Origin: Escherichia coli
GTDB lineage: Bacteria; Pseudomonadota; Gammaproteobacteria; Enterobacterales; Enterobacteriaceae
Length of the DNA: 64,000 nt
Strand: one strand, 5' to 3'
Assembly: GCF_045037415.1 (NCBI RefSeq)
Contig: NZ_CP173438.1
Below are positions 38,360-62,155 of this stretch, piece after piece. Each line of letters starts with the position of its first letter. Within the stretch, counting starts at the first letter, position 1. The notes beneath the pieces are model-generated. The model made no database searches and was not told where the DNA came from. It saw only the letters and a list, made by a program, of their open reading frames with translations. Both the position numbers and the translations under genes were made by a program.

Positions 38360-38417
38360 ATTAAATCTGCTGTCTCATGAGGTTTCACTGAATCTCATAA
38401 GAACCGTAAAACTCTAT

Positions 38418-38445: not shown

Positions 38446-38488
38446 ATTTCGCAATGTCTCAATTCATCTCATAACAACGCTGTCAAAA

Positions 38489-38541
38489 ATGAGTACATGG
38501 ATGAGTACAACATTCTTCCATCTTCATTTTAAGTGAGTACA
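38489..38541 (+). repeat. Three direct copies of TGAGTACA upstream of the island integrase (candidate arm-type/att sites)
   Basis: ATGAGTACA at 38489-38497 and at 38501-38509, and GTGAGTACA at 38533-38541, all between the ychF terminator and the integrase ATG. Confidence 0.7.
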
Positions 38542-38573
38542 ATAACGGTATAATAAATAAACAAGGCCCCGTT

Positions 38574-39749
38574 ATGCTCACTGATACGCAATGCCGCACT
38601 GCTAAGCCGAAAGAAAAACTCTATCGACTTAATGATTTCAATGGTCTCTACCTCGAAGTGAAACCCAATGGTAAAAAGGCATGGCGCTATCGGTTTAAAC
38701 TCAACGGTAAATCCAGCATGTTTGCGCTGGGTGAGTACCCGACGGTAAAACTTGCCGAAGCTCGCGAGAAATGCGAGCAAGCGCGTAAGCAAGTCGCAGA
38801 TGGAGTTAGCCCAACACAGGCTCGTCAGTTAGATAAGATCCGCAAGGTCAACGACGCATCCAACACCTTTGAGCTAATCGCTAAAGAATGGTTGCAGATG
38901 AAAGACTGGGCCGGAATTACCAAAACGCGGCGACTGGATATGCTTGAACGTGTGGTTTTTCCCGCCATCGGTAAGCTCCCTGTCAGAGAGATCACTCCAC
39001 ACCATATACTTAAAATTCTTCAGGAAACCGCTAAACGAGGAGCACCAACAGTTGCCGCTGAAGCCCGTCGCACCATTTCATCAGTTTTTGAGTTGGCAGT
39101 CGCGACGCTTAGAGCTGATAGCGATCCCGTATGGCCTGTGCGCAAGGCCCTTCCGGCTAATAAGACACAGCACAAACAGGCACTAAATCCCCAACAAATC
39201 GGAAAGTTACTAAGCTGTTTTGACAATAGTCGTGGCTCGTATCAGGTTAACTATTGCATGTGGCTTATGTGGTGGACATTGGCGCGTCCTGCAGAAGCCA
39301 CCGAAGCAGAATGGACAGAATTCAATCTTGATAACGCCCTATGGACTATTCCGGCAGCGCGAATGAAAGCCCGCAGAGAACACGTTATTCCCCTACCCTT
39401 CCAAGCTGTCAAAATGCTCAGAACACTACAGGGATTAACCGGGCATCGGCAGCACCTTTTCCCGGGCAGAGACAATCCGCTAGGTCCAATGACATCGCAC
39501 TCACTGCGCCAGCTACTTAAAAGCCTCGGCTGGAGTGGTACATATAGCCCACATGCAACCCGGACCACAGGAAGTACCCGTTTAAACGAGTTGGGCTATC
39601 GACCTGATGCTATTGAGGCCCAACTTGCGCACGCTGATACCAACAATGTTCGTCGCACATACAACCATGCAACTTATCTTGATGAGCGTAAAGTGATGAT
39701 GCAGGAATGGGCTGATATGTTGGACAAATGGGTAGCAGGATTCAAGTAG
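38574..39749 (+). CDS. int: P4/CP4-57-type tyrosine integrase
   Basis: 391 aa. The N-terminus MLTDTQCRTAKPKEKLYRLNDFNGLYLEVKPNGKKAWRYRF is a DUF4102-type arm-binding domain. C-terminal catalytic contexts are ARPAE, HSLRQ, HATRTTGST, LAHAD and RTYNH. Confidence 0.9.
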   Translation: MLTDTQCRTAKPKEKLYRLNDFNGLYLEVKPNGKKAWRYRFKLNGKSSMFALGEYPTVKLAEAREKCEQARKQVADGVSPTQARQLDKIRKVNDASNTFELIAKEWLQMKDWAGITKTRRLDMLERVVFPAIGKLPVREITPHHILKILQETAKRGAPTVAAEARRTISSVFELAVATLRADSDPVWPVRKALPANKTQHKQALNPQQIGKLLSCFDNSRGSYQVNYCMWLMWWTLARPAEATEAEWTEFNLDNALWTIPAARMKARREHVIPLPFQAVKMLRTLQGLTGHRQHLFPGRDNPLGPMTSHSLRQLLKSLGWSGTYSPHATRTTGSTRLNELGYRPDAIEAQLAHADTNNVRRTYNHATYLDERKVMMQEWADMLDKWVAGFK

Positions 39750-45019: not shown

Positions 45020-46415
45020 TTACGCCGCACCGTCCTTTTTAACTTCTCGCCAGATTCGCCATGCCATAAACGCCAGAACGGCAACGCCAAGTATTAACGC
45101 CCCCCACACCAGCAGCGTTTTCCACTGACTTTGTTGTTCGGCTGCCGACGTCGCCGTTAGTCGCAATTCACCGCCGAGAGTTACGCTCTCCTGCGGTATA
45201 GCCCACGGCAGATTATCTATCTCCTGCGTTTTACGCAGCGACGCAGGGATCAACATATCGAGTCCAACATCGGCCTTTTTCGCCGCCCGGTTTCCCCACG
45301 CCAGCATGTAAGGACCTTTGCCTTGCGTGTTAAAAACCAGTTGATAACTGTCGCGCGCACCGCTCAATGCTGGCAATGCCTCCGGCAATCGCGCATTAAT
45401 TGTACGTATTCGAACAGCCTCAACTAACTGGCCAGGAAGACGAATATCTTCTGAACGCTTCCCGTCCAGGCGATACAACACCGTTTTTGTCAGTGACTGC
45501 CAGGGTTCTTTTTCGCCGCTGCGCCAGACCAGTTCCACCGGTAAAACGCCTTCATTTTCCAGATCGATCCGCAACGATGTCAGGGGCTGCGGCTGTGTCC
45601 ATCGCCAGACGGCTTCATCATCCGACACCTTATCCGCCCGAGCGCCAATCACAATACGTTCGGACTCCGGCTCATTACTGTCAGCAATAGCGCTCACGCT
45701 GTTTAACGTCAGTGCCGGGCTTTGCGAGTTGAGGATCACCAGCAGGTAGCGATTTCCTTCAAGTGACAATGTCAGGTTGGTGCTGATGGCGTCCATTTTC
45801 AGACGATCGCTATCCCGCGTCAGATCCATTAACGGCGCATCTTCCTGCACGGGTCGCCAGTAGCGTAAATCACGGCTGACATAAACCGAGGCTTTCCCCT
45901 GCCAGTTGCCCGTCGGCGTCCCCCAGTTCAGACGCAATTGCGTCAGTGAAAGAGAGTCTTTCCTCTCTTCCGGCAACGTCAGTAAATAGCTCTGCCCGAG
46001 CGCAGTGACATCATCGCTTTGCAAATGAATTTCAATACCGTTTTTTGAACGTAAAACAACAGCATCCCCACTACGTTGACCCTCATCACGCGGCGGAACC
46101 GGCGACATATCAAGCGGGAAAAGACGCAGAGCCACTGTCTCTGGCGTAACGGTCTGGGTTTTCTGCGCCACCAGCGCAAACGGCACCATATCCCCCAGAT
46201 GGTTAAAAACCCGCACATCGCGCAAATCCGGCCATGCAGTGCTCTGATACACCACCTGCGGCAGCGAAATGCGATACCAGGGCGAATGCCCCCGTGGTTT
46301 CCAGCGCGACGCCTGTTGCGTAGTCCGTTGGCGCTTCCTTCACTTCATCGCTGCTGACCGCCGCGCCCGCAGTACTCAGTAGCACGCTGCATAACACCGC
46401 TTTCATCCATTTCAT
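45020..46415 (-). pseudogene. Exported protein with C-terminal TM anchor (DUF3999-like from memory), frameshifted in a G5/C5 run
   Basis: ATG at 46415 gives the signal peptide MKWMKAVLCSVLLSTAGAAVSS...VALETTG. The frame then changes at CCCCC 46289-46293 to HSPWYRISLPQVVYQSTAWPD... (ORF 45020..46255). Removing one base restores a single ORF of about 464 aa. Confidence 0.7.
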
Positions 46416-49069
46416 TTTTCTTCTCCCGCTTTGGGCGGTAACGGTGAAAAATACCCGACGATTAGCACCAGAATTGCCACGCCGATAAACGTGACCGCGC
46501 GTGCCAGGCCGCCGCCACGCGCACTGTCTACCAACATCAGTTTCACAATAACAATCCCTAACAATACGGATCCACAAAGCCATTCGCGACGTGAGCAACG
46601 CCGGGTCGCACGTAGCATCACCACTAATGCCGCCAGCATCCAGAACAGGGCAAAACAGGTCTGAATCAGCCGCGAATGCCACAGTGTTTCCGCGCTCCAG
46701 GGCACTTCGCCGTACCAGGCCAATGCGCGCAGCAGGATGCCATTCAGCCACCAGAAGCTAAGCGCCAGCAGTGCAATGAGCGGCCAGGGACGGCATACCG
46801 AAATCTGCACCGGGAAAAAGCGCTGCGAAACGCGATAAAATACAATGAGTCCCAGTAGCGCAAAAGCGGCCCCCTCCTCCAGTGGATTCACCAGCGGCAG
46901 CCAGGTCTGGCGATAAACTACGCCATCCTGCAAATTCGTCAGTACTAGCAGAACAACCAATACCGCAGCTACCGGTATCATCGCCTGAGAAGCGTAGAGT
47001 GCGGGCCAGCTTCGGAATGGCCATAGCTGACGATGAACCGCCTCATGAACGAGAAAGATGAGCAGGCCCCCCGCGGCCATCATCAGGCCGGAGCCCCACG
47101 CCGCCATGCCCCATGGCAGATCTTGCGCAAACCAGAATAGCTCCGCCGCCAGCGCGAGCAGAATCATCCAGAAGAGTGAAAGGTGCGCCAGTCTGGAGAG
47201 GCGCGGCGGCAACGTCTCAGCATCACGCCAGAGCAATGCCCCCGCAGCGGGTAACGCCAGACACCAGGCCAGATTCTGCCAGCCCGCAGCAAAAATCTCA
47301 TGTTGTGAAATTTGAGACAGCAGCATCACCAGCATCGTCGGCCACAGCAACCATTTGCTGACATCCAGCTCCCACCAGGCCAGACGACCAGAGACAATCC
47401 GCCAGCCCCAGACCGATATCGCCATTAACGCCAGCACGCCAGACAGCACCAGCGAGTCCTTTTTCAGCACCAGTTGCGATGCCCCAATGAGCGCGATTAT
47501 CCAGAAGATCAAACCGCCAGCCAACAGAACCCAACTACCCTGCAACTGAATATTGCGCCACAGCCAGGCGGCAGCCAGCCAGCTGAGGCTGAGTACGGCA
47601 AAGATTAGCACCAGAGAAAGCGCGCTCATCCCGTTCATCTGCGCCCACAGCGCGCTGCACACTGCCAGCACCAGCAGCGCAGTGCCGCTATAGCTCATAC
47701 GCCGCTGCTGCTGTTGCACGCCCAGCCAGAGGATGCCGAGACCTTCCAGCGCCCAGGCCATCGCCGTCCAGCGGGCCGAAAGCGCCAGTGGGATAGCGAG
47801 CGTGGTAAATGCCCCACCCAGCGCCAGCGCCGCCAGCACCAGCGGCCTCCCCAAAGAGGGATAGCGACGCAATGCAAGCCATGCTAACGCCAGATAGAAA
47901 CCGCCGTAACCCAGCGCGCTAAGCGCCGGACCATATTCCATATGCCGGGTTATGGCGTACTGCATGCCAAAACCGACCAGCGGCGATGCAAACAACAGCA
48001 CGCCATCAATAATCTGCTTACCTTTCTCCTGTGCTCGTAGCGATAGCGCCACGCTCAGCACACCAAAAATGATCGTATTGGCTATCAGGAAAAGCTGACT
48101 GCTCAGGTAATACTCTGATCGATAGCCGTCGAGTCCCCAAAGACCGCCGATACCAAAGGTAAATAACAGGCCAAGCAGATTAAGCTCGCGCCAGTGTTGC
48201 CAGATGCTGATGGCGAGAATACCGACGGAAAGCAGAAGGTAGAAAGAGAAGAGCGCCACATGACTACCGCCGCCGGTGGAAAGCAACAGCGGTGCCAGAT
48301 AGCCACCGATACTTGCCAGCATCGCGAGGCTGAGCGCTTTTTGCATAATCGCCAGTCCCACGCTCGCCGCGCAAATCGCCACCAGTAATGCAAACGCCAG
48401 CGTCATCGGCAGCATCTGCCAGAGCCAGAATGCGCCAAAAACGGTGAGATAGAGCGTCCCCGTAGCTCCACCCTGTATGATCAGCGCATAAACCAGCTGT
48501 TTATGCCGCAATCGCCAGCCCACTACCAGCAGGGCAATCGCAAACAGCGAAGTCGCCACCAGACGTAGCTCAAGCGGGAACAGGGAGTGTTCAACCGTAT
48601 AACGCAGCAGGAAGGAGAAGCCAAGGAAGAGAAGCAGAATACCCAGCTTTGCCAGCGGGTTGCCCTGCATAAACCAGCGCACCAGGGACGACATCACCCC
48701 ACCAAAAGCGGAAGATTGTTCGACCGCTGGTGTGGGTAGCGCCTCGTTTTGCGGCTTCGGTTGTGGACGCCAGGGGTCAACGGACTCAGGCGTGACATCA
48801 GCCACAGGCTCCGACAGCACGATGTTAACCGCAGGCGAAGACGTTTCAACAGGCACAACCATCTGCGAAACACTCTGCGGCACAGTTGTTACCACTGTGG
48901 CGGGTGCTTCAGTCACACCGCGCTGCTCAAGCACCTCCACCCGGCGACGCAGGGTCGCCAGCTCAGAACGAACAGCCGTGCTGCGGCTGAGCGCGATAAT
49001 CGCGAGGATGGGAACCACCACCAGTGCGAAGAATAAAGCAATGCAGCCAAGGGTTAGCAGCTCATCCAT
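46412..49069 (-). CDS. Large polytopic membrane protein (DUF2339-like from memory)
   Basis: I prefer ATG 49069 (MDELLTLGCIALFF...) over the TTG at 49111. The protein has an N-terminal TM, the coiled segment LATLRRRVEVLEQR and a Pro/Val-rich linker. More than 20 hydrophobic helices follow. The stop abuts the downstream start. Confidence 0.7.
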   Translation of the reverse strand: MDELLTLGCIALFFALVVVPILAIIALSRSTAVRSELATLRRRVEVLEQRGVTEAPATVVTTVPQSVSQMVVPVETSSPAVNIVLSEPVADVTPESVDPWRPQPKPQNEALPTPAVEQSSAFGGVMSSLVRWFMQGNPLAKLGILLLFLGFSFLLRYTVEHSLFPLELRLVATSLFAIALLVVGWRLRHKQLVYALIIQGGATGTLYLTVFGAFWLWQMLPMTLAFALLVAICAASVGLAIMQKALSLAMLASIGGYLAPLLLSTGGGSHVALFSFYLLLSVGILAISIWQHWRELNLLGLLFTFGIGGLWGLDGYRSEYYLSSQLFLIANTIIFGVLSVALSLRAQEKGKQIIDGVLLFASPLVGFGMQYAITRHMEYGPALSALGYGGFYLALAWLALRRYPSLGRPLVLAALALGGAFTTLAIPLALSARWTAMAWALEGLGILWLGVQQQQRRMSYSGTALLVLAVCSALWAQMNGMSALSLVLIFAVLSLSWLAAAWLWRNIQLQGSWVLLAGGLIFWIIALIGASQLVLKKDSLVLSGVLALMAISVWGWRIVSGRLAWWELDVSKWLLWPTMLVMLLSQISQHEIFAAGWQNLAWCLALPAAGALLWRDAETLPPRLSRLAHLSLFWMILLALAAELFWFAQDLPWGMAAWGSGLMMAAGGLLIFLVHEAVHRQLWPFRSWPALYASQAMIPVAAVLVVLLVLTNLQDGVVYRQTWLPLVNPLEEGAAFALLGLIVFYRVSQRFFPVQISVCRPWPLIALLALSFWWLNGILLRALAWYGEVPWSAETLWHSRLIQTCFALFWMLAALVVMLRATRRCSRREWLCGSVLLGIVIVKLMLVDSARGGGLARAVTFIGVAILVLIVGYFSPLPPKAGEEK

Positions 49070-49206
49070 GTTTCCACCGTCGCGGTATAAAGATGGGTCA
49101 GAATGACACAAACTGTTGTATTTGTGCCATATGCATTAGCAAAGCGAGCCGCTTTTTCAGAAAATACCATCAACCTCTGCACGCAGGCAGAAACTGTAAA
49201 ATGCGA

Positions 49207-49888
49207 TTAAAACGCAAAGCACGAACAACCGGGCATTCGTGACCAGAATGTATCTCTGTTTACTTTAAGTGATGAGGTTTTGGATCTACGCACTACTCTT
49301 CCGCTTCTGAGGCATTGCTGCAGCTCTTTTTTTAAAGCTCCCCGGGTTGGTATAAAAAGCGTTTTATAAATCATTTCATGTGACACATGCATTTCCTGAT
49401 TATCGGGATAACAGCGTTTTAGCCAACCGCCAATTTGTTCCGGCGACCAGTCCTGATGCATCTTCTCTGCAATGATTTTACACAATGTGGGGCTTTCAAT
49501 TAGCTTGCAAGGTTTTGGTCTCAGAGCATTTTCCCACGCAGCAGGATCGGCTTTTGCTGCACGGTATTGTTTTGCACCGCCGTGCCTCCTGATCTCGCGG
49601 CTAATCGTTGAGGGAGCTATTGATAATTTAGCAGCGATGTCCCTGATGATGCGTTTTGCTACCAGTCCTCTGGATATCTCCTCTTTTTCATCAAGCGAAA
49701 ACGCTAACCGGTGCCGCTTTCGCACGGGAGGACGGTAGCCACCGGCCTGGTGGATTGTAGGCATGATAGTAGAGTGAAATCTGTCGAACATTCTGGGGGA
49801 TATCATGCAGGGAATCACCTTGCTTATATCTGTCCCAAATAATCACCTTTTGCTCTGGCGTGTAGTTAATACGAGTTCTTCGTTTCAT
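49207..49888 (-). pseudogene. IS30-family transposase, N-terminal HTH portion only, frameshifted and truncated
   Basis: Two overlapping frames. MKRRTRINYTPEQKVIIWDRYKQGDSLHDI is in one frame. ...LSIAPSTISREIRRHGG...WSPEQIGGWLKR...VSHEMIYKTLF is in the other. These resemble the IS30 Tnp N-terminal half, and no DDE domain follows. Confidence 0.75.
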
Positions 49889-50065: not shown

Positions 50066-51463
50066 CTAGTCCTTCACTTTCATCGTGAAACCACGCCAGT
50101 CCGGTAGTGAAAGCGCGCCCGTTGCCACTACCCCATCATGATCCAGCATGCAGACACGACCAGGGTTCATACTGACAACCTCACGGATATACGCCTGCTC
50201 CACACCACAGATCATAAACGCCAACAGTGCCTTATTCCGCGCATATTGATGATGGTGAGTCTTTTCACGCTGATACACCTCACTATTAAGATCCAGTATT
50301 AATCCGACTTCATTAGCGTACCTGTGATAGTTACGCGGTGATGAACAACTCTTGCGGTGTGCGCCATGCACACGTTCCAGCAATGACTCAAGCGCAGATT
50401 TCAATGGACTGATATAACGGTTCCACCAACGCAAAATCTTTAGCGCCTTTTTTTTGCTGTTACCGCACCATCCATACACTTTTGCCCCAAGGCCATCATT
50501 AACACCAATAGTCACACGCCCAATTCTGTAGGTGGTGGTATGGACCATCTGTTTGCACTGTTTACGGGTCAGCCCGGTATGTTCCATCATGGTTTTATAT
50601 ATCGATGACTTCACACGATAATCGACGTCATACTGTCTGAACAGATGGTTCAGACAGGCCAGATTGCACGCTTCGATGTCATAGTTGAGTAACCCGGTCC
50701 GAAATTTAGCTTTGAACTCATTGGGCAGATTCTGGAAAGCTTGATCATAATACCGCCCTCCAAACGTCAGACGATAATGATGGTCGTAAGTGACATATTG
50801 TCCCTCAATCCTGCCATTGTAGAGATGGTTAAGGCTGCGTATTCCTGCGCGGTAATAGTGATCCGGCTCACGGCTACGCAATTCCTTCACAAACTGTATA
50901 CTCATGCGCCCCCGCCCAACTTTGGCCAAGAAGTCCTTTTCCGTTTGTTTTAGGGCCGTCTGGCGTTTCTCTACATCTATCGCATGCCCAGGAGCTTTCC
51001 CGTTCCCCTGAAGCAGAGCTCTAAAACTAACAGACTCACCAGTATCCAAGTCAACCAGATTTAACTTACCCCTGGCAGACTCATCACACACAGGCAGCAG
51101 GGGGTTGAACCGCCATGCACTGGCTCTACGCTTTTCCGGGTCTTTGCTCGCTTTTCCTGCACGAAATTCAATATCCGAAAGTGTCGGCAGGAAATCAGTT
51201 AGCGTGGACATAAAGCACTCCCCCTGGTAACTAATTTCACACTGTCCCAGGAGACTGGCATAGCTGCTACGGATATCCCGGACAGTGCATATAGTCCAGC
51301 CATCATCGTCTGTTTCCAGCCATATGTGAGCCAGGAACCACCGTACTGTCTGCCGCCGGGTAACAGCCCATTGCGTATCCCCCACGACATAATCCGTTAT
51401 TTCAGTAATACGGTCATAAACCCACTTAGGGATCTTCACTGGATAATCCTTTTCAGTACTCAC
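50066..51463 (-). CDS. Stand-alone family-A (Pol I-like) polymerase-domain protein with a novel N-terminal region
   Basis: 465 aa with a GTG start after GAGGGGA. Motifs read directly are NGRIEGQY...FGGRYYDQAFQNLP (cf. TGRxHTSY...TGRLSSxxPNLQNIP) and NYDIEACNL (motif A, DYSQIELR). Also present are RKQCKQMVHTTTYRIG (motif B, R-x3-K-x7-Y-x2-G) and MLDHDGVV (motif C, HDE). Confidence 0.65.
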   Translation of the reverse strand: MSTEKDYPVKIPKWVYDRITEITDYVVGDTQWAVTRRQTVRWFLAHIWLETDDDGWTICTVRDIRSSYASLLGQCEISYQGECFMSTLTDFLPTLSDIEFRAGKASKDPEKRRASAWRFNPLLPVCDESARGKLNLVDLDTGESVSFRALLQGNGKAPGHAIDVEKRQTALKQTEKDFLAKVGRGRMSIQFVKELRSREPDHYYRAGIRSLNHLYNGRIEGQYVTYDHHYRLTFGGRYYDQAFQNLPNEFKAKFRTGLLNYDIEACNLACLNHLFRQYDVDYRVKSSIYKTMMEHTGLTRKQCKQMVHTTTYRIGRVTIGVNDGLGAKVYGWCGNSKKKALKILRWWNRYISPLKSALESLLERVHGAHRKSCSSPRNYHRYANEVGLILDLNSEVYQREKTHHHQYARNKALLAFMICGVEQAYIREVVSMNPGRVCMLDHDGVVATGALSLPDWRGFTMKVKD

Positions 51464-51950
51464 GGTCCCCTCTCAGCATCCTCGTCTCACTACATTAACC
51501 AAACTCAACGCTGGGCAATTCGAAAGTCAAAACCCCAGTCGCGAGGATGGGCTCCGCCCATGATTTGCTCCACTCCGGTCGCAAATCTTTCCCCCTGTTC
51601 AGGCTGACGCCTTCCCTCACTCGCTGCGCTCGTTCGCCGTATCGTTTAATGACATGAGAAGGAGATGAAGCCTCCGTAGTGCTGCATGTCCCCAAGCTCT
51701 CCGTTGCGCTCAATGGCAATGGTGCTCGCTGACCGCTCCCCCCATTGTGTGTAGAATATTCACTGACAGAAACACAGAAAGCCCTCACAGATGCGCTAAC
51801 TCGTCAGTTGATGGTAAGGATCGGGTGTGCAGAGGCATCCGTGAGCCCCTGCAGAAAACAGACGGTTGCGTTAAAATCGAGACAGTTGGAATGTTAAAGT
51901 GCATCAGCGCCATCAAAATCACTGGCAAGCTTTGCAGTTTTACAACAACG

Positions 51951-51995
51951 AAAATGCAGTGGTTGCCGCTGTTATTCGTCGTTCCACTGCAATTT
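51951..51995. repeat. Inverted repeat AAAATGCAGTGG-N21-CCACTGCAATTT in the gap upstream of the polymerase gene
   Basis: 12-bp arms with one mismatch. The same 12-mer AAAATGCAGTGG recurs at 52930-52941. Confidence 0.8.
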
Positions 51996-52039
51996 AATCA
52001 ACAGCAAAAGTGCATTGCAGTTGCTGCATTACCGGTAAA

Positions 52040-52894
52040 TCAGTGCACTTTCCCTGGGGGTTGCCCAAACGAAAAAGAAACGACACCTGTTCCGAGTGAG
52101 TCCAGGGTAAGCAGACTTTTTAACAGTGTCCGGCCTTTCAGTAGCTCCATTCTTGACTTAACAAGAGCGTCTTTATCAGTCAGTGTGTAATCTGCTGTGT
52201 GCCAGACTGGATTCAGGGCGCATGAAATCAGTCTCGCGGGATCTTTATACCTGAGCACGATCACTGGTGTGTTAAGCGTCGATGCATCAATGAATGCCCC
52301 ACCACTTCGCGACATATGCGCTTTTAGCCCCTTAATCAACGTACTGTCATTGGGCAGGAACAAACACAACTGTGGAACCCAGAAAATACGCTCTTCTGGG
52401 CCATCAGGCATATGTCGCATCATACTGAAGGTGCCTGTGGCCGGACCGGCGTACCCCAGGCGGTTAAGTACCCGGCTTATCCTCTGCTTATAACGACCGA
52501 TTTGCGCCCTGAGCGCCCCAATGTTCTTCCATGGCGGCGGAGTTTGCGTATCCTTGTTGAAAAACAGGACCACTCCCACGTATTCTGCTGAATTCCCCGG
52601 CAAGACATGCAACATAGCCAGTTGCGCCAGAATGCGTTCCCGCTGGCAATGCGGGCATATAAGACTGTTGCATGGAGATCCGTTTCTGCACTGCCTTAGT
52701 TTTTGAGCAATGATGTTGTAGCAGCGATTGCTGCCTTTCAGTTTATTTAGTAAATGGTTAAGACGCTGCAGTTCATACTCACTTTCCTGCTGGGTAATAA
52801 TAGTGGGGAATGCTTTACTTAAAATCTCAAGCATTGACGGTGCGTGACGAATGTAATCCGGGTCAGATGTTCTGAAGTAATAAGAATCGTTCAT
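52040..52894 (-). CDS. Hypothetical protein with a CxxxxCPxC zinc-ribbon-like motif (possible replication initiator)
   Basis: 284 aa with AGGAA before the ATG. CNSLICPHCQRERILAQL resembles the Cys motif of some plasmid/phage Rep proteins, but I see no HUH motif. Confidence 0.55.
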   Translation of the reverse strand: MNDSYYFRTSDPDYIRHAPSMLEILSKAFPTIITQQESEYELQRLNHLLNKLKGSNRCYNIIAQKLRQCRNGSPCNSLICPHCQRERILAQLAMLHVLPGNSAEYVGVVLFFNKDTQTPPPWKNIGALRAQIGRYKQRISRVLNRLGYAGPATGTFSMMRHMPDGPEERIFWVPQLCLFLPNDSTLIKGLKAHMSRSGGAFIDASTLNTPVIVLRYKDPARLISCALNPVWHTADYTLTDKDALVKSRMELLKGRTLLKSLLTLDSLGTGVVSFSFGQPPGKVH

Positions 52895-52981: not shown

Positions 52982-53449
52982 TTACCCGAATGACCTCGCC
53001 TGAGCATCTTCATGCCGCTCAACTAACTTATTGTAATCCCAATGATAAGAGGAATTTTTGTCGTTTGTTTCTAAAAAATCTAAAAATAACTCAGGCAACT
53101 GATATAAAGCGTATTCCCCGGTTACATCCACCCCCTGATAATGTAATTGCTGAGCGGTAGAACAATATGCACAGGCCCTGCTCCCGCAGGGAATGTATTT
53201 ACAACGCTCAAGGATAAGCGCCAGTTTAGCGTAGTTGCTCCACATGTCATCGGCCCCGCCGCAATCCTGTATGAGAATATTGGACACTGTATATGCAGAT
53301 GCGTAGTTAAGCTTACGTATCCGTAAACGCTGCTCCTTTAACACTGCTGATATCGTTTCTTGTGATAAACCAACCTGTTTCCCCATAGTTTCGAACCAAG
53401 GAACCAGCGTTTTTTTCGCAGAACTGGTTTTCGATTTTATCTCTTTCAT
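52982..53449 (-). CDS. Hypothetical Cys-rich protein
   Basis: ATG at 53449 (MKEIKSKTSSAKK...) lies 1 nt after the alpA stop and is preceded by GGAGA, giving 155 aa. Contains CKYIPCGSRACAYC. Confidence 0.55.
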   Translation of the reverse strand: MKEIKSKTSSAKKTLVPWFETMGKQVGLSQETISAVLKEQRLRIRKLNYASAYTVSNILIQDCGGADDMWSNYAKLALILERCKYIPCGSRACAYCSTAQQLHYQGVDVTGEYALYQLPELFLDFLETNDKNSSYHWDYNKLVERHEDAQARSFG

Positions 53450-53450
53450 T

Positions 53451-53648
53451 TCATTCTCCCGCCTGCATACGGCTGTTAACCCAGTTATTGATATCACTCT
53501 CCAGCCAGCCTACCGCCCGGCCATTGTCGCCCGTTAGCCTCTTTGACAAAGGAAAGAATCCTTTCGAGATGAGTCGGTACAACGTCGCTGACGAGTTCCC
53601 CGTCAGATGAAGTACCTCTTTTTTACGCAAAATACGGTTGGTGTTCAT
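53451..53648 (-). CDS. alpA: AlpA-family phage/island transcriptional regulator (excisionase-like HTH)
   Basis: 65-aa ORF MNTNRILRKKEVLHLTGNSSATLYRLISKGFFPLSKRLTGDNGRAVGWLESDINNWV, a typical AlpA signature. Confidence 0.85.
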   Translation of the reverse strand: MNTNRILRKKEVLHLTGNSSATLYRLISKGFFPLSKRLTGDNGRAVGWLESDINNWVNSRMQAGE

Positions 53649-53870: not shown

Positions 53871-54485
53871 ATGATTGGTAACCAAAGCAACAAGGCTGAC
53901 GCCAGATGCCACCGGGAACGGAAAAGCAGTAACGAGGTCTTTGAATTTCTGGAGAAGAAGCTTTATCTGGGACGGGATACCCGGCAAAAACTGGCACTGA
54001 TTGCCCGGAAACTGACGGGAGCGGGTTTTAGCCCGGATAAATTCGCTGCGGAGAAAGCGGCAGATGTGCTGAGTGCCTGCGTGAACCACATGTTTAATGA
54101 CCTGCTCAATGAGGGAGAGCCAAACGGGATTTATAGGCCGGAGGAACACCCCATGATAGTCCCGGCCAGGTCCCCTAAGGCACTGGAAATCTATACTGTT
54201 TACCAGCTTGTAAAAGGTCGTTTTGACAAGCTTCATACGGGGGAGTCAGATCGTGAGAAATATGCTTCGGTAGCAGAAAAACTTAATGAGTATGGAATAT
54301 GGAAACCCCGGTTAAAACGACTCTCTGACGGTAAAGAATGGGCGCGTGAGGATGTTGCGTGGATGCTTCAGCCTGAAAATATCAATGCACAAATTAACAT
54401 CCAGAATCAAAAGTACGCGCGGTTGAGTGCTGAAGATGAAACTGAAACCGAGTCTGGCAACGCCTCAACTGCTAAAAACATCTGA
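53871..54485 (+). CDS. Hypothetical protein
   Basis: The ORF track starts at 53859. ATG 53871 is preceded by GGAGG, giving 204 aa. I recognise no motif. The 3' end overlaps the convergent recombinase gene by 14 nt. Confidence 0.55.
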   Translation: MIGNQSNKADARCHRERKSSNEVFEFLEKKLYLGRDTRQKLALIARKLTGAGFSPDKFAAEKAADVLSACVNHMFNDLLNEGEPNGIYRPEEHPMIVPARSPKALEIYTVYQLVKGRFDKLHTGESDREKYASVAEKLNEYGIWKPRLKRLSDGKEWAREDVAWMLQPENINAQINIQNQKYARLSAEDETETESGNASTAKNI

Positions 54486-55401
54486 TGCGCTTGCTGGCAC
54501 TGATCTTCATAGTATCACCACGACAGTCATAGCGCGTCGTCGTGGATATGTCGCTGTGGCCTGCCAACTGGCGGACGGTATTGATATCCACGCCCTGCTC
54601 CAGCAAACGGGTGATGAAGGTGCGCCGCATATCATGCGGGGTAAAACGTGCTATACCTGCCGTTTGCTGTAACTCAGCCAGGATACCCGTTAACCCGGTC
54701 GTAGTCAGCGGTTGGCTTGCGACCTTACCACTGCGCTGAATTCGCCTAAACAACGCACTGTCAGCCTCGTCTGCGCCAACTTTCAGCCACGCACGAATAG
54801 CCTTGTCCACCGCATCCGCCACGTGAATTTCACGGTATTTACGCCCCTTCCCTTGCCTCACCGTCAGGATGCCGTTGTCATAGTCCCGGCGCTCAAGTTT
54901 AACCAGTTCCCCGGCCCGCAGGCCCGTTCCGCAAAGCATCAGCACAATGGCGACATCGCGACAGCGCCGTACAGATTGCGGATGCTGTTTTGCAGCCTGA
55001 ATCAGTACCCGGATTTCCTGCCTGCCCAGCGCCCTTCCCTTGCGCTGGACATCGCCGCTCACGCGCTTAACTGACCGGATACGTGCCAGCGTTTCGGCAT
55101 CCATGTAATTGAGGTTAAAGGCCGTCTGCGCTACGCCCCGGAGTGCTGACAGCGCCATGTTGACCGATGACACGGCGTAACCGTCATCCAGCAGTGCCGC
55201 GCGCACTTTGGCAACGGCGGCGTAGTTAAGTTGTTCCCACGGATAGTCTGCTGCATCCGCACCGTGTTTAAGTATGCTGGCGCTGCGGTTTAACAGGCTG
55301 GTGATACCTCGCCGTCCCGAGGGGGCCAGACCGACAATATACGCATCGAACACGGTGGTTTGCACCACCGGCACGACCTGACGCAACGCTGTCCTGCTCA
55401 T
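54472..55401 (-). CDS. Tyrosine recombinase (XerC/D-like phage integrase family)
   Basis: Catalytic contexts are TGLRAGE (R), GKGRKYR (K), HDMRRTF (HxxR), GHSDISTT (H) and TRYD (Y). I prefer ATG 55401 to the TTG at 55416. Confidence 0.85.
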   Translation of the reverse strand: MSRTALRQVVPVVQTTVFDAYIVGLAPSGRRGITSLLNRSASILKHGADAADYPWEQLNYAAVAKVRAALLDDGYAVSSVNMALSALRGVAQTAFNLNYMDAETLARIRSVKRVSGDVQRKGRALGRQEIRVLIQAAKQHPQSVRRCRDVAIVLMLCGTGLRAGELVKLERRDYDNGILTVRQGKGRKYREIHVADAVDKAIRAWLKVGADEADSALFRRIQRSGKVASQPLTTTGLTGILAELQQTAGIARFTPHDMRRTFITRLLEQGVDINTVRQLAGHSDISTTTRYDCRGDTMKISASKRIRCF

Positions 55402-55447
55402 GCGCGTAACCCGCAATAACGTACATTAAACCAAGTAACTTTCAGCA

Positions 55448-55900
55448 TCACACCAGTCCTCGCTCAGCCATCGACACCGTTTCAGTTCCTGCCACGATAA
55501 AGTGATCAAGTAACCGCACATCCAGTATTTCCAGCAGCTCCTGAAGCTTTTTGGTCAACTGGATGTCACACCGGCTGGGTTCAGGCTCGCCGCTGGGGTG
55601 ATTATGGACAAGGATGACGGCGGCGGCGTTATGTTTCAGCACACGCTTAATAACTTCACGGGGGTGAACGCTGACCGAGTTTAGCGTACCCCTGAACAGG
55701 ATTTCGCGGTGCAGCAGCTGATTATGATTATCGAGTAGGATGATGCCAAACTCTTCATGTTCAAGCGGTGCCAGCTCAACCATCACGCACCGTCGAACAT
55801 CATCAGGGGAACAGAGTTGAACCCCACGCTGGTAGTACCGGCTAATAATGTCACGCGCCTGGTCAAGGATACGGGTTTCACGCTGGGTAAACATGGTCAT
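55448..55900 (-). CDS. RadC-like JAB/JAMM domain protein (YeeS/YfjY/YkfG family)
   Basis: ATG 55900 lies 1 nt after the upstream stop. The JAMM motif is LVHNHPSGEPEPSRCD. Confidence 0.85.
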   Translation of the reverse strand: MTMFTQRETRILDQARDIISRYYQRGVQLCSPDDVRRCVMVELAPLEHEEFGIILLDNHNQLLHREILFRGTLNSVSVHPREVIKRVLKHNAAAVILVHNHPSGEPEPSRCDIQLTKKLQELLEILDVRLLDHFIVAGTETVSMAERGLV

Positions 55901-55901
55901 G

Positions 55902-56441
55902 TCAGAACTCCCGTTCAATGAAGTAAATGGCGTCTGGAAACAGCTGGCGGCGGGTTACGCCAGTACGCAGGGAGAAAGCTTTACGGGGCATGGTGGTTCG
56001 CCCGTTGCTGTCGAAGAAGCAGAGCATTTCTTCGTCCATTTTGACCAGAAGGGACCAGTGAAACTGGTCGCTGAGCATAATCAGGCGAGAGTGGTCAGTG
56101 ACGTCAAGAAACCGCTGCATTTCCCTGAACAGCCGCCCGTCTGTTAACCCCCGCTTCCCTGCAAAGGGTCTGGTGATTTCAACCGGGAACTGGCGGCGGT
56201 AATGCCCTTTCTGCAACACCTGAGCTATTAACCAGTCTAAGCGGTCTTCTTCAATTCCTTCAGTCAGCCATTCATGCAAAGGCCAGCGCTGCTGATAAGT
56301 CTGAATAAGCCAGTTCATTAACGGGCGTCGTTTCACCCTGCCGTCATACAGCCAGCTCAGCATGTTAACCACGCAATAAGCACCGCAAAGACAGTCCAGT
56401 TCGCCCTGTTGAGACGCACGTATCCCTCTGTCAGTCGTCAC
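55902..56441 (-). CDS. Predicted papain-fold cysteine peptidase-like protein
   Basis: 179 aa with a GTG start after GGGGA. QQGELDCLCGAYC has the Gln-x5-Cys spacing typical of papain-like oxyanion/nucleophile pairs. DQFHWSLLV...FFDSNG supplies candidate His and Asp/Asn residues. Confidence 0.5.
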   Translation of the reverse strand: MTTDRGIRASQQGELDCLCGAYCVVNMLSWLYDGRVKRRPLMNWLIQTYQQRWPLHEWLTEGIEEDRLDWLIAQVLQKGHYRRQFPVEITRPFAGKRGLTDGRLFREMQRFLDVTDHSRLIMLSDQFHWSLLVKMDEEMLCFFDSNGRTTMPRKAFSLRTGVTRRQLFPDAIYFIEREF

Positions 56442-56482
56442 AGATAATTCCCCATAAATTAGTGATGGTTAGTACAGGGGGA

Positions 56483-56905
56483 TTAGCTTTCCCAGAGAAC
56501 GGTAATGGTGTAGATGTTCATGCCGTGATACTGAATAAAGTTGGATTGCCAGAGTTCAAACAGCTCCCTTCCGGCGTTAACAGGCAGGTCACCAACATAA
56601 GCAAGAAAGACATATTGCTGACTCCAGCTGATATCAATTTCCTTTTCAAGTTCGGGGTATACCGTCCCCATATAACTGAAGTCGGTAATGTAATCAAAAT
56701 ACCATTCATCATTGCGTGAAATAATCCGTATTTCGACAGGATGGTAACCACCCTTTTCAGCGCTGTAACTCAGGTCTTTAAATAACAGACTGACGGCTGT
56801 AATTTTGGCTTTATGCGGCGGTGGATTTCCCGCTTCATTTAATATGATATTTATTAATTCCTGATCGACGGGCATAGCTAGCCCTTCCTGATGGACAATA
56901 TTCAT
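56483..56905 (-). CDS. Hypothetical 140-aa protein (possibly DUF2787-like; family recalled with low certainty)
   Basis: AGGAAA precedes the ATG. It is the first gene of the minus-strand operon 56905->54472. Confidence 0.5.
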   Translation of the reverse strand: MNIVHQEGLAMPVDQELINIILNEAGNPPPHKAKITAVSLLFKDLSYSAEKGGYHPVEIRIISRNDEWYFDYITDFSYMGTVYPELEKEIDISWSQQYVFLAYVGDLPVNAGRELFELWQSNFIQYHGMNIYTITVLWES

Positions 56906-57229: not shown

Positions 57230-57718
57230 TCACACCTTCCCGTTCAGCTTTTCAAAGAGGCGCTTACGCTCATCTTCGGGCAGCTTCATGATTTGTACCG
57301 CCAGTTCAGAAACATTGGGCACCTGAGACATCAGATCGTCCTTTACCAGCCTGAGGGCCTGCTCCATCAGTTGCGCCCGCGAAGCTGGCGACATATTGCG
57401 ATACAGCTGCACCCAGAGGCTTAGCTGGCGATCACTGTCGTTGAGAGTAAACGCTTCGCCCTTAGCCCTGTTTCTCTCATCATCAAGCGACATTGTGGCT
57501 GCGCTAATATGGTAAACCACACCTTTCCCGGCAGTCCTTTTACGACGTATTTCCGGGTGCAGGGATGCCAGCTTTTCCAAGCGCATCCTGGCGCCACGCG
57601 CAGTGCCCGGCATCCCCTCAATATGAGTGAATTCCTCTGCTGTCAGCCAGTCTTTAGCCTCTTCAACAGAAGCTTCAGGATGAGTAGGTATAGCCGAAAC
57701 TGTTCTCTTACTGCTCAT
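57230..57718 (-). CDS. Mu Repc(c)-like DNA-binding repressor
   Basis: ATG 57718 gives 162 aa. EEFTHIEGMPGTARGARMRLEKL...RKRTAGKGVVYH parallels the Mu c repressor N-terminal winged-helix region (...MPGSVAGVHYRA...RKKEGVKGGKAVEY) as I recall it. Confidence 0.6.
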   Translation of the reverse strand: MSSKRTVSAIPTHPEASVEEAKDWLTAEEFTHIEGMPGTARGARMRLEKLASLHPEIRRKRTAGKGVVYHISAATMSLDDERNRAKGEAFTLNDSDRQLSLWVQLYRNMSPASRAQLMEQALRLVKDDLMSQVPNVSELAVQIMKLPEDERKRLFEKLNGKV

Positions 57719-57764
57719 ATAAATTTCACCAGATATCAATGCGTTAATATGAAAACCAATAAAT

Positions 57765-57792
57765 AGATACCAAAAGAACTTGAAAGGTATCT
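57765..57792. promoter_or_regulatory. Inverted repeat AGATACC-N14-GGTATCT in the c/ner divergent intergenic region
   Basis: Read directly. The region also contains three TTAATA(T/C) copies. It is a candidate operator. Confidence 0.4.
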
Positions 57793-57839
57793 TTTATTCG
57801 CATTTAATATCCATGTACTGATTCCATGGAGTTAATACT

Positions 57840-58109
57840 GTGCGTAACTCAACAGCATCGCAGAAAAAGCAAATCAAAGGAAGTTCAGGGAACTGGCATC
57901 GTGCCGATATTGTGGCAGCACTTCACAAGCGAGGGTTAACGCTGGCGTTACTGTCACGCAGTCACGGCCTTGCGCCACGGACATTAAATAACGCCTTAGA
58001 GCGTCATTATCCCAGAGCTGAGCGCATTATTGCCGGGGCTCTGGATACGACACCGGAAACATTATGGCCGGAAAGGTATGCCCTTAAAAATGGACCTAAT
58101 AGCAGGTAA
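57840..58109 (+). CDS. Ner/Nlp(SfsB)-family DNA-binding protein
   Basis: 89 aa. WHRADIVAALHKRGLTLALLSRSHGLAPRTLNNALERHYPRAERIIAGALDTTPETLWPERY is the Ner-like HTH signature. Confidence 0.85.
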   Translation: MRNSTASQKKQIKGSSGNWHRADIVAALHKRGLTLALLSRSHGLAPRTLNNALERHYPRAERIIAGALDTTPETLWPERYALKNGPNSR

Positions 58110-58120
58110 AGGATGCAACC

Positions 58121-58648
58121 ATGGCAACCACCATCACTGAAATAACGGAATGCTTTGAGTATTTTTTCAGTTCTCTTTATCGCAGGGAGTTCGTCAAAAC
58201 CCTGCGTCTGAACGAATGTAGCGAGCGGGAATTACTGCCTCTGGTACGTTGCTATTTGCTGGGTTGGTTTGCAGATAACGTCTCACCGGAAGTAAAAAGC
58301 AAACTGCCAGGAACTGTATCCGGGCACGGTTACATTGATTTTGTCATTGACGATGTGGCCGTTGAGTTTGCAGTACGTAAACCAACTGCGGCACGTTCCA
58401 ATGTCTCTGCGACCGTCAACAGTACAGAAGTAAAGAAATTGATGAAACATGACGGCAAAGCCTTGCTTGTGCTGTTTGATTTCTCTGACACACCCTATTC
58501 AGAAGAACAGATTGAATCCTTCCGCAACTGGCCCTCTCTTGGTCGAGGGAATCATCGCAAGTCTGCATTCAACGTCGTTTATTTCTTTGTGGAAAAACGC
58601 AGACCGCTGGCACTGGGGAAAATCACCAAAAACATCCGTATCACTTAA
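58121..58648 (+). CDS. Hypothetical cytoplasmic protein, possible PD-(D/E)xK-like fold
   Basis: 175 aa with AAGGA before the ATG. GYIDFVIDDVAVEFAVRK...STEVKK could supply D...E.K, but the spacing is atypical. Confidence 0.5.
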   Translation: MATTITEITECFEYFFSSLYRREFVKTLRLNECSERELLPLVRCYLLGWFADNVSPEVKSKLPGTVSGHGYIDFVIDDVAVEFAVRKPTAARSNVSATVNSTEVKKLMKHDGKALLVLFDFSDTPYSEEQIESFRNWPSLGRGNHRKSAFNVVYFFVEKRRPLALGKITKNIRIT

Positions 58649-58662
58649 CAGGGAATTAATTA

Positions 58663-59022
58663 ATGAACAGAAAACTGTTGGCCTTATTCATGGCAGCCAT
58701 AACGCTACCAGTCGCAGCAGCGCAGTACGTAAAACCCGGAGCGGTTCTAACCCTGCATCCGGGACAGAATAACGCTGAATTCAACATTAATGCCTCAACG
58801 GGGGATGGTTCGGGCGTATGCAATATGGAGGGGACAGCACAGCAAATAGCTGCCGGAGAAAGTCAGAAGCGTCGCTGGGTCTGGAATGACAATGCCAGCG
58901 AGTGTGTTGCAGTAATTAGTGAACTGACAAACGGTAAGGCCAGCATTATGACACGTGGTTGCGAGGGATACTGCGGGGCTTCTGCGGCAGGCGCAATGGA
59001 TGGTCTATTTAATAAGAAATAA
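58663..59022 (+). CDS. Hypothetical secreted protein (signal peptide, four Cys)
   Basis: 119 aa. MNRKLLALFMAAITLPVAAAQ is a signal peptide ending in an AxA-like cleavage site. Confidence 0.55.
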   Translation: MNRKLLALFMAAITLPVAAAQYVKPGAVLTLHPGQNNAEFNINASTGDGSGVCNMEGTAQQIAAGESQKRRWVWNDNASECVAVISELTNGKASIMTRGCEGYCGASAAGAMDGLFNKK

Positions 59023-59052
59023 AAGTATCATTAATTTACGAAGGAACTACAG

Positions 59053-59388
59053 ATGAAAAGAGCAATACTTCTGGTATTAATTGCTGCTGGTTTGCTGGCT
59101 GGCTGCGGCGAGAAAACGCCAAAATGTAGTAGTGATGATGCAAAAAATCTGGTCGGGGATATTGCAAGAAAGACAATCGAGAAAGGGATGAAACTGGATA
59201 AGGATGTGCGTATTTCTGTAGAAAATGTCAGAACAATTAGCCATGAATCAGATCTGGATGTTTATCAGTGCGCTGCTGATTTAACGTTTACAAAACCAGA
59301 TTTGCAAAATTCTCTACCAATCACCTACCGGATTCAGAAAACTGATGAGGGTAAAGGTCCGTTTTATATAAACGTAACAGGTTTATAA
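59053..59388 (+). CDS. Hypothetical lipoprotein
   Basis: 111 aa with the lipobox LLAGC after a hydrophobic leader, and AAGGA before the ATG. Confidence 0.6.
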   Translation: MKRAILLVLIAAGLLAGCGEKTPKCSSDDAKNLVGDIARKTIEKGMKLDKDVRISVENVRTISHESDLDVYQCAADLTFTKPDLQNSLPITYRIQKTDEGKGPFYINVTGL

Positions 59389-62154: not shown

Positions 62155-62155
62155 G

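Follow-up and report, generated by a model that had tools for sequence, protein, structure and literature searches.

Whether an island in the Escherichia coli chromosome can carry a minimal polymerase of its own is the question raised by an open reading frame (ORF) of 465 codons in a 64,000-nucleotide stretch of E. coli DNA (RefSeq assembly GCF_045037415.1, contig NZ_CP173438.1), which we refer to as the window. The ORF lies at 50066-51463 on the minus strand, and an initial annotation made from the letters alone had read it as a stand-alone, Pol I-like polymerase of an integrative element, for which no described system was known. The ORF is real, and its product is a nuclease-free minimal polymerase of the PolA/T7-RNA polymerase (RNAP) fold with active-site residues that are intact and invariant. 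The initial reading of the protein was correct; its novelty was overstated and the element was drawn too small. The class had been described in 2008 under the name TV-Pol (PMC2579912), and the CCPol-MP pair has been shown to be a primase-polymerase (PMC7581432).

The catalytic core occupies residues 215-465 (50069-50821, minus strand), as delimited by conservation, by mapping to T7 DNA polymerase (DNAP) and by two structural models that both have a predicted local distance difference test (pLDDT) value above 90 in this part. It comprises a beta-meander bearing the invariant R237, with a T/DxxGR-type motif (T233-R237) and Q244, N245 and P247; motif A (N260, Y261, D262); an O-helix-like motif B (R300, K304, H308, Y312, G315); a "QG"-type motif ahead of motif C (C419, G420, E422); and motif C itself (H442, D443, G444). 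The four motif strings first reported lie exactly at residues 216-247, 260-268, 300-315 and 440-445, and the distances between motifs, given then as about 42 and about 139 residues, measure 42 from D262 to K304 and 139 from K304 to D443. The first of these is 47 in T7 DNAP (D475 to K522, from the alignment described below) and the second, to D654, is 132, with distances of 53 and 124 in Klenow.

Conservation of these residues holds at two depths. Among 26 members of the family, which span several genera and 45-93% identity, D262, R300, K301, K304 and D441-H442-D443-G444 are invariant, and so are LTFGGR (232-237), Q244, N245 and P247. In a superfamily alignment of 42 sequences, whose distant members are 15-23% identical to the query, R237, Q244, D262, K304, G420 and E422 are kept in 42/42, H442, D443 and G444 in 41/41, N384 in 41/42 and Y/F312 in 37/42, so that both aspartates aligned by the initial annotation with catalytic ones are conserved. 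The position of R300 holds R or K in just 21/42 of the superfamily alignment, yet is invariant in the 26-member family. Compared by hhalign, the superfamily profile matches T7 DNAP with E=1.1e-4 and pairs D262 with D475, N267 with E480, R300 with R518, K304 with K522, H308 with Y526 and Y312 with Y530. These T7 residues are the catalytic Asp of motif A, the steric-gate Glu, and the Arg, Lys and two Tyr of the O-helix, and their Klenow counterparts are D705, E710, R754, K758, F762 and Y766. The mapping means that the motif assignment was right, including the choice of D262A and D443A as mutants; the catalytic residues named (D262, K304, D443) are all upheld by invariance across the superfamily, and D262 and K304 by the T7 mapping as well. 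That the metal-binding Asp residues and the nucleotide-binding Lys are strictly invariant speaks for catalysis, and the protein would seem from its sequence to be catalytically competent, with predicted polymerase and primase activities.

The fold agrees with this. Model 2, which was built on the 42-sequence alignment, has a pLDDT of 92.1 and a predicted template modelling score (pTM) of 0.87. A fold search with the earlier model gave these structural matches (values in brackets): Pol theta (11.0), Taq-type polymerase (10.3), Pol nu (10.2), apicoplast Pol (9.3), T7 DNAP (9.1), Klenow (8.2), mitochondrial RNAP (8.0), T7 RNAP (7.1), N4 RNAPII (6.8) and N4 vRNAP (6.2). Together with the T7 DNAP alignment, these matches bear out the family-A-type palm and fingers that had been proposed. 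That the protein is not a polymerase at all, the motifs being chance matches in an unrelated sequence, could appeal to the lack of any domain in Pfam (E<=0.1), NCBIfam, PHROGs or PADLOC, to the lack of any Pfam family (E<=0.1) in 10 distant relatives, and to a family-only profile that matches no PDB sequence at E<=10; with the superfamily profile, the PDB search yields matches in motif B alone, to Pol theta, T7 DNAP and Pol nu, all of them below threshold. This explanation is next to incredible, being effectively refuted by the structural matches, the hhalign result and the residue conservation across the superfamily.

Ahead of the core, residues 126-214 (50822-51088, minus strand; pLDDT ~85-97 in model 2) form a linker and a putative thumb. 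Helices are placed by model 2 at 166-180, 189-197 and 202-212, and residues 147-242 as a whole read as three helices followed by the R237-bearing meander (strands 215-240). In the order of elements given for TV-Pol and PolA in PMC2579912, the modelled helices putatively take the position of the thumb. The first 125 or so residues (1-125; 51089-51463, minus strand) are specific to the family and are modelled as one compact alpha/beta domain, which may be a DNA-binding domain of the winged-helix type. Searches of Pfam, NCBIfam and PHROGs recognized no domain at any point of the protein, in agreement with the earlier statement that it has neither a 3'-5' nor a 5' nuclease domain.

The family in which we place the protein was defined by Iyer, Abhiman & Aravind 2008 (Biol Direct 3:39; PMC2579912). 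Transposons, viruses and islands carry TV-Pols, which are PolA-like polymerases reduced to a minimum and free of nuclease domains. Their core is made up of a thumb built on two antiparallel helices, a beta-hairpin C-terminal to it with an absolutely conserved Arg, a palm with two Asp and fingers with an RxxxK motif, and they are never linked to a nuclease. They are found as stand-alone proteins, as fusions to a D5-like helicase, or with an uncharacterised N-terminal domain, and those of the last kind adjoin lambda-type integrases, resolvases or transposases in integration hot spots. They were proposed as a minimal, ancestral-like form of the PolA/T7-RNAP superfamily and as a third type of primase, and are predicted to be primase-polymerases because they displace primase-polymerases of the archaeo-eukaryotic primase (AEP) type in situ.

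Membership was tested through Microcystis phage Ma-LMM01, which is named in the same paper as a TV-Pol carrier. A hidden Markov model (HMM) of the superfamily (A2) gave a single match in the 162-kb Ma-LMM01 genome, gp030 (E 1.7e-14), which adjoins two transposase genes, and did not match the phage's own annotated DNA polymerase; from this uniqueness and these neighbours we take gp030 to be the TV-Pol meant in PMC2579912. As a control for transitivity, an HMM built from 35 distant relatives alone gave E values of 4e-52 for the window protein (over residues 195-464), 4.8e-16 for gp030, 3e-83 for a protein of an Erwinia jumbo phage and 0.003 for T7 DNAP. An HMM of the enterobacterial members only matched the Erwinia protein at 1.4e-14 and did not match gp030. 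It is from the matches of the distant-relatives HMM, and from the failure of the enterobacterial-only HMM to reach gp030, that we draw the placement of the window protein, by sequence, as a divergent, Enterobacterales-restricted branch of the TV-Pol superfamily. The defining features can be located one by one: two metal-chelating Asp in an RNA-recognition-motif-like palm (D262, D443), a conserved Arg in a beta-hairpin N-terminal to the palm (R237, 42/42), RxxxK in the fingers (R300-x3-K304), no nuclease domain in the protein and no exonuclease gene among its conserved neighbours, profile similarity to an accepted member through gp030, and a mobile-element setting with two tyrosine recombinases and AlpA, without a D5-like helicase, which agrees with the integrase-linked subset of PMC2579912.

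The gene starts at a GTG with a GAGGGG Shine-Dalgarno sequence 4 bases upstream, and codon 9 is a second GTG; as this coincides with the start of many homologues, a product of 457 residues is also possible. Its region is 100% identical in many E. coli chromosomes, several of them labelled O25b:H4-ST131 (sequence type 131), and the gene is present, mostly uninterrupted, in 590/5426 complete E. coli genomes (~11%), many of them ST131. A word-indexed search gave 78 homologues with identity down to 45%; those with a source name are all called "hypothetical protein" and all come from Enterobacterales genera. A further 50 or so distant relatives, 430-916 residues long and aligned chiefly over profile positions ~215-457, came from 1.84 billion representatives searched exhaustively with a profile, and a homology search with the broad alignment returned almost exclusively the close family. 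The ratio of nonsynonymous to synonymous substitution rates (dN/dS) is 0.08-0.28 across all three parts of the protein, so the gene is under purifying selection. The largest protein cluster, P0002 (1010 member sequences), differs from the window protein only over about 38 residues (36-73, window ~51250-51360), where it resembles the alternative-frame ORF 51199-51390 on the minus strand (…GSWLTYGWKQTMMAGLYALSGISVAAMPVSWDS…); this suggests, on the sequence, a common allele with a compensated double frameshift in the N-terminal domain. The window's own frame over residues 36-73 is the one common to other genera. In some ST131 genomes ISEc52 splits the polymerase gene (e.g., strain MB1341, L001 12167-13861; comparison loci are cited as L001, L002 and so on), and in some ISEc23 also lies inside the 5.6-kb region.

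An auxiliary enzyme for repair, translesion synthesis or gap filling, or a DNA-binding protein derived from a polymerase for which catalysis is not essential, kept as cargo that benefits the host, would fit several of these observations: the structure is best matched by nuclease-free PolA enzymes such as Pol theta and Pol nu, RadC is also encoded on the island, and loss or interruption of the gene is tolerated. We nonetheless regard it as very improbable, since the metal-binding Asp and nucleotide-binding Lys are strictly invariant, the distribution is very narrow and island-bound (the family occurs at only 7 loci in ~185,000 species-representative genomes), and the tight linkage to AlpA and to the cis-element described next is unexpected for host repair.

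At every locus a non-coding gap of 350-600 bp precedes the polymerase gene (51464-52039 in the window). It contains a cluster of TGCA repeats, followed by an invariant CTACACAnnATGGGG block from which a conserved hairpin starts. The conserved leader spans 51525-51754 (minus strand; alignments A3 and A4), with the invariant block CTACACACAATGGGGGGAGC at 51735-51754 on the same strand. Written as CTAC(A/T)CA(C/T)(A/T)ATGGGG, the block is essentially invariant in 12/12 lineages, including those with polymerases just 45-48% identical, and it occurs once in the window where 0 occurrences are expected. The motif matched public metagenome and viral contigs 22 times; 13 matches are the same element and 9 are due to chance, and in 11 of the 13 a TV-Pol gene follows directly on the same strand, the other 2 being cut before the gene. 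These scans added little diversity, as only close relatives were recovered beyond the chance matches.

Hairpin P1 (~51717-51747) starts inside the block, has the form (C/T)(A/T)ATGG...CCAT(A/T)(G/A), and is the minimum free energy (MFE) fold in 8/8 lineages tested, despite unrelated loops and with an A-T to T-A compensatory change. Four local hairpins follow it, three with compensatory pairs, and the compensatory pairs number four overall; the further conserved hairpins lie at ~51601-51612, 51562-51587 and 51547-51561, and a weak terminator-like hairpin with a T-run at 51533-51546. The TGCA-centred short repeats (51881-52050, minus strand) are iteron- or operator-like. Nowhere in the 64-kb window does the TGCA count per 170 nt rise above the 8 found here (mean 0.72, standard deviation 0.93), and in most lineages 4-10 copies are found at the same position, with inverted repeats I1 and I3. 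An overlapping 97-residue ORF (51495-51788, minus strand) was considered and rejected as coding, the leader being non-coding because 1-nt and 13-nt indels separate the lineages. Rfam has no match in the gap, and a large structured non-coding RNA is not supported, as the MFE of a 241-nt region has z scores of +0.69 and 0.0 relative to shuffled sequence on the two strands. The evidence therefore describes local hairpins, in DNA or RNA, instead of a large folded RNA.

A related motif was not found upstream of the TV-Pol genes of Ma-LMM01 and the Erwinia phage. Clusters of CTGTAGC/ACTGTAGC repeats do flank distant TV-Pol genes in Erwinia phage pEa_SNUABM_1 (L047 2240-2633) and in a phage-like contig (L048 10187-10750). 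In the latter, a hairpin ACTATGGGGGATC-TTCG-GATTCCCCAT with a T-run stands directly after the stop codon, and its 5' arm resembles the enterobacterial invariant block. Both the island family and its conserved cis-element appear to be undescribed in the literature searched.

The block also bears some likeness to a T7 promoter. Scored with a weight matrix made from ten annotated promoters of a T7 genome segment, it ranks 1-23 among 18,710-127,956 positions at 8/8 loci (in the window, 6 of 127,956), in the same register throughout. A genuine T7 promoter it is not, as it scores 1-13 bits vs. 27-35 bits for real ones and the likeness was noticed post hoc; we regard it as a lead only. The likeness bears on the alternative that the protein makes RNA, whether it is an RNA polymerase specific for a promoter or site or an RNA primase. 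It would start at the G-run of the block, which lies upstream of the gene that encodes it, and would act as an "autogene" or produce a leader or primer RNA. The high ranks at 8/8 loci would be in keeping with this, as would the absence of a predicted sigma-70-type promoter on the coding strand of the gap. The steric-gate-aligned position (N267) is never Glu in the superfamily, the column over the 42 sequences being Q17, H17, N4, C2, S1 and F1. Motif C is HDG(F) and one subgroup has AKxxLTMTAYGA as motif B, which are closer to T7 RNAP (HDSFG and TKRSVMTLAYGS) than to Pol I. However, the hhalign and HMM comparisons reach T7 DNAP and give no profile match to T7 RNAP, and the low bit scores count here too. 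In P1 the bases at -4 to -1 are paired with others further downstream, and as -4 to -1 would be absent from an RNA that starts at +1, the pairing points to a hairpin at the DNA level. The protein also presumably lacks the N-terminal domain and specificity loop by which T7 RNAP recognizes its promoter. Taken together, we consider an RNA-synthesizing role unlikely.

A related proposal is that the block and hairpin form the enzyme's own sequence-specific site of de novo initiation and that the promoter likeness (AT-rich at -17/-13, CAC at -7/-5, initiating G-run) is homologous. This is quite doubtful. If it were true, TV-Pol would stand as a living intermediate, with DNA polymerases of the PolA type on one side and single-subunit, promoter-specific RNA polymerases on the other: an enzyme that recognizes a promoter-like DNA hairpin by its own gene and starts an RNA or DNA chain there, and the missing steric-gate Glu would reflect a relaxed or ribo-directed choice of sugar.

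It is also important to consider the element in which the gene resides. Comparison of loci from Salmonella, Pectobacterium, Yersinia, Serratia and other Enterobacterales shows the polymerase gene to be part of the core of an Enterobacterales island, which here occupies the 3' end of ychF and elsewhere yicC and other sites. The left end of the island (38348-39749, plus strand) consists of the attL core TTCAACGTCTAA (38348-38359), which is assigned as such because these last 12 nt of ychF recur at the far junction, and an outer P4/SXT-type integrase (38574-39749; Arm-DNA-bind_3, Phage_int_M and Phage_integrase domains). In L001, a complete ST131 genome, the island lies between ychF and dhaR with ~27 kb between the att repeats, and the 12-bp direct repeat is present at both junctions, for which the chance expectation is ~0.02. 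The same outer integrase stands beside ychF in L002, L003 and L010. The setting beside AlpA, a tyrosine recombinase and Cys-rich ORFs had thus been recognized correctly by the initial annotation, although the 50.0-55.5 kb segment that it suggested is too small for the mobile unit, a larger island that runs from attL at 38348-38359 and continues beyond the window. Three copies of (A/G)TGAGTACA stand in the stretch that separates ychF from the outer integrase gene (~38480-38550) and are likely arm-type integrase binding sites; one copy, kept in L003 and L010, scored high with the T7-promoter matrix by chance.

The genes that persist with the polymerase are AlpA, orf179, DUF2787, orf169, the HTH_35 gene, orf175 and orf111; orf284, the inner tyrosine recombinase and RadC are optional though frequent, and the outer integrase (ychF or yicC type) and the cargo are swapped among loci. 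The gene of the AlpA-family regulator/excisionase (53451-53648, minus strand; PF05930, E 2.6e-12) opens a gene string that continues with orf171, orf284 and TV-Pol. AlpA is found upstream of TV-Pol in 5/6 other TV-Pol loci (not L003), and also in L017, which lacks TV-Pol. The Cys-rich orf284 (52040-52894, minus strand), a frequent companion upstream of the polymerase gene and in the same direction, occurs in 4/6 TV-Pol loci at 41-84% identity, and at 22% in L017, and has no Pfam, PHROG or PDB sequence match. The likewise Cys-rich orf171 (52982-53497, minus strand) is lineage-restricted, being found only in the closest locus, L013, and has no family match in Pfam, PHROGs or NCBIfam. From its GTG at 53497 it overlaps the 3' end of alpA by 47 nt (53451-53497), and since the RefSeq product is shorter (468 nt), the true start is probably downstream.

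Beyond alpA lie the inner tyrosine recombinase of 314 residues (54472-55416, minus strand; PF00589, E 1.4e-31), an optional backbone gene present in L010, L012, L013 and L017 and absent from L002, L003 and L011, and the RadC (JAB), orf179 and DUF2787 genes (55448-56905, minus strand; Pfam assignments), of which orf179 and DUF2787 occur in every locus examined. A divergent control region (57230-58109) pairs orf169 on the minus strand, similar to the N-terminal DNA-binding domain of the Mu c repressor and MuA (phrog_310, phrog_7148), with a Ner-like HTH_35 gene on the plus strand, similar to Ner-type repressors (phrog_769; PF13693). It resembles the c/ner switch of phage Mu and is conserved in all loci. 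The genes orf175, orf119 and orf111 (58121-59388, plus strand) complete the backbone; orf175 is the most conserved at 73-99% and has no family or PDB match, and orf119 and orf111 have no family match. No helicase, SSB (single-stranded-DNA-binding protein) or other replication gene is recognizable by sequence in the island core. A sister island in yicC (L017, E. coli KFu019) has the same backbone, with HTH_35, orf175, DUF2787, JAB/RadC, the inner recombinase and AlpA-like and orf284-like genes, and no polymerase gene; a partial "integrase core domain" pseudogene occupies the position of the polymerase, which makes this locus a natural knockout for comparison.

With this in mind, the reading that we favor, as a little more probable than its contrary, is that the island has in TV-Pol a primase-polymerase of its own, for which the repeats and hairpins beside the gene serve as origin or initiation site. 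It coincides with the suggestion of the initial annotation that the element may have its own minimal PolA replicase, to which we attach the same modest preference. The cycle would begin with relief of the Mu-like repressor/Ner-type switch, upon which the string of AlpA, orf171, orf284 and TV-Pol would be expressed and the island would excise via its tyrosine recombinases. TV-Pol would then bind the cis-element upstream of its own gene (the TGCA repeats, the CTACACA tract and the hairpin), probably through its N-terminal domain, start synthesis there de novo and extend the strand as a primase-polymerase. With no recognizable helicase gene in the island core, it would fall to a host helicase, or to strand displacement, to unwind the DNA. 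The use of the cis-element as an origin, binding by the N-terminal domain and the order of events are what we infer for this locus.

A replicase role seems reasonable in that the gene travels with the AlpA-type and backbone genes while the cargo and outer integrase change, that no other replication gene is found in the core, and that next to the gene lie a conserved hairpin element and the short-repeat cluster with the highest density in the window; repeat clusters flank the distant phage TV-Pol genes as well. There is also a precedent, as CCPol-MP primes preferentially at a site adjoining its own operon (PMC7581432). Several points weigh on the other side. CCPol is, per its authors, the sole TV-Pol characterized, and no member of the N-terminal-domain type is among those studied (PMC7581432). 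CCPol needs MP, and no helicase, SSB or OB-fold partner is recognizable in the island core. The enterobacterial branch has substitutions at otherwise conserved positions (Q419->C, H416->F, Y308->H). The gene is dispensable for vertical maintenance, because the yicC island L017 persists without it and ISEc52 interrupts it in some ST131 genomes. Excision and replication of the island are themselves presumed, and, as an alternative to an origin, the cis-element could act in regulation or as the leader of a transcript.

The cargo of the island bears on a further alternative. To the right, a three-gene ABC-3C system (60268-63807, minus strand) encodes a 635-residue AAA-like ATPase, MC2 (PF20288, E 5e-54) and a CTD6/Mrr_cat effector, and in L001 it is followed, just past the window end, by a retron Ec67-type reverse transcriptase/endonuclease. 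To the left, a DUF3999/DUF2339 pair of membrane-protein genes (45020-49111, minus strand) has a G+C content of 0.56-0.61 vs. 0.44-0.51 in the rest of the island, with DUF3999 annotated as frameshifted in L001. Directly downstream of the polymerase gene is an IS30-like transposase remnant (49207-49888, minus strand) of two overlapping ORF fragments with HTH_38 and HTH_32, annotated as a frameshifted partial transposase in L001, which may mark a site of cargo exchange. Sister islands have restriction-modification genes, an OLD-TOPRIM/UvrD pair and other systems. In such surroundings, the polymerase and the structured element could be an anti-phage or conflict module that makes a nucleic-acid product on a cis-encoded template or primer and has no part in replicating the island, comparable to retrons and defense-associated reverse transcriptases (DRT), whose layout of a structured non-coding element upstream of a polymerase is the one seen here. 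The position of the gene at the boundary of core and variable cargo, and the presence of homologues in jumbo phages, would suit this explanation. We think it rather unlikely, as PADLOC has no match, the gene co-varies with the backbone and not with exchangeable cargo, the 241-nt region is no more stable as RNA than shuffled sequence and is without an Rfam match, and no effector-type neighbor (nuclease, toxin or similar) is conserved.

If the favored reading is right, the enzyme probably primes and copies the ~27-kb island that carries its gene, and the likely replication module has been identified for a widespread family of defense-carrying islands whose polymerase is annotated in current databases as "hypothetical protein." The window gene encodes what seems to be an intact TV-Pol of the type that has an N-terminal domain and linkage to integrases, in a tractable host and with a candidate cis-acting site next to it, so that priming, sugar use and island replication are directly testable; with E. 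coli as the host, it would make an easy model for TV-Pol function. We consider the case of moderate to high interest because a common E. coli gene gives a direct test of the 2008 primase-polymerase prediction.

Compared with canonical family A enzymes (Klenow, Taq, T7 gp5, Pol theta, Pol nu), the window protein has the T/DxxGR, A, B and C motifs in the same order and with similar spacing, and it retains the catalytic Asp pair, the O-helix Lys and Tyr and equivalents of the minor-groove-sensing Arg and Gln. However, its core is ~250 residues in place of ~400, no Pfam DNA_pol_A (PF00476) match is obtained, no exonuclease domain, active or vestigial, is found in the protein, and N267 stands where T7 has E480 (Klenow E710). 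By motif resemblance, the equivalent of Klenow Q849 is Cys in the enterobacterial branch, and H308 replaces the usual Tyr. Of the initial "Pol I-like family A" label, the core assignment stands and canonical membership does not: the protein joins PolA at the superfamily level only. Its TV-Pol branch is not included in the accessible parts of the PolA surveys of 2023 and 2026.

The T7-like single-subunit RNAPs, including N4 RNAPII and N4 vRNAP, share with it an HD(G/S)F-type motif C and a sugar-gate position without Glu, and a block like the promoters of the T7 class lies upstream of the window gene; N4 vRNAP uses DNA-hairpin promoters. The window protein differs from these enzymes in being far smaller and in having no detectable profile similarity to T7 RNAP.

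Gammaproteobacterial pipolins, whose hallmark is the primer-independent family B polymerase piPolB (PMC11551731), resemble the island in their outer SXT/P4-type integrase, second tyrosine recombinase and excisionase-type gene, DUF2787 and variable defense cargo, and in a self-priming-type polymerase, self-priming being predicted for the window enzyme. The polymerase fold is unrelated, integration is in tRNA-Leu instead of ychF, and, relative to the pipolin core (piPolB, IntSXT, IntP2, DUF2787, WYL and orphans; PMC11551731), the window island has no PolB. Comparison with eight backbone proteins of an E. coli pipolin (L016) gave no matches but DUF2787 (53%) and a recombinase of generic similarity (26%). 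A pipolin with its polymerase swapped is therefore rejected as homology, since only DUF2787 is shared, and is retained as an architectural analogy.

Closer in kind is CCPol of SCCmec, which together with the OB-fold protein MP is a dNTP-using primase-polymerase (Bebel et al. 2020 eLife, PMC7581432; Rice 2023, PMC10061031). Both are A-family-type polymerases without a functional exonuclease, encoded in integrative elements beside site-specific recombinases. CCPol is nearer to Pol I: equivalents of E710 and F762 are retained, as is part of the exonuclease domain, and it clusters near CHEAP PolAs (PMC10201439); it is a peripheral, atypical, Pol I-like and partner-dependent TV-Pol member. De novo priming has been shown for CCPol, which needs MP and is linked to the Cch2 helicase, whereas the window protein has no Pfam match, has Asn at the steric gate and has no recognizable MP-like or helicase gene. 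No small ORF is conserved downstream of the polymerase gene, orf284 and orf171 upstream have no fold recognizable by sequence, and, relative to PolA-SSB-primase systems with a helicase in the operon, no backbone gene has a helicase domain.

Relative to the TV-Pols of PMC2579912, the window gene has no D5-like helicase, resolvase or transposase partner, the protein has branch-specific C419, F416 and H308, the N-terminal domain models as alpha/beta where TV-PolN was predicted to be all-helical, and the upstream hairpin and repeat element is not described in the accessible sections of that paper. It has in common with them the minimal core, the extra N-terminal domain found in a subset and a stand-alone gene near integrases, and it is on this basis a new, divergent member of a known and experimentally almost untouched family.

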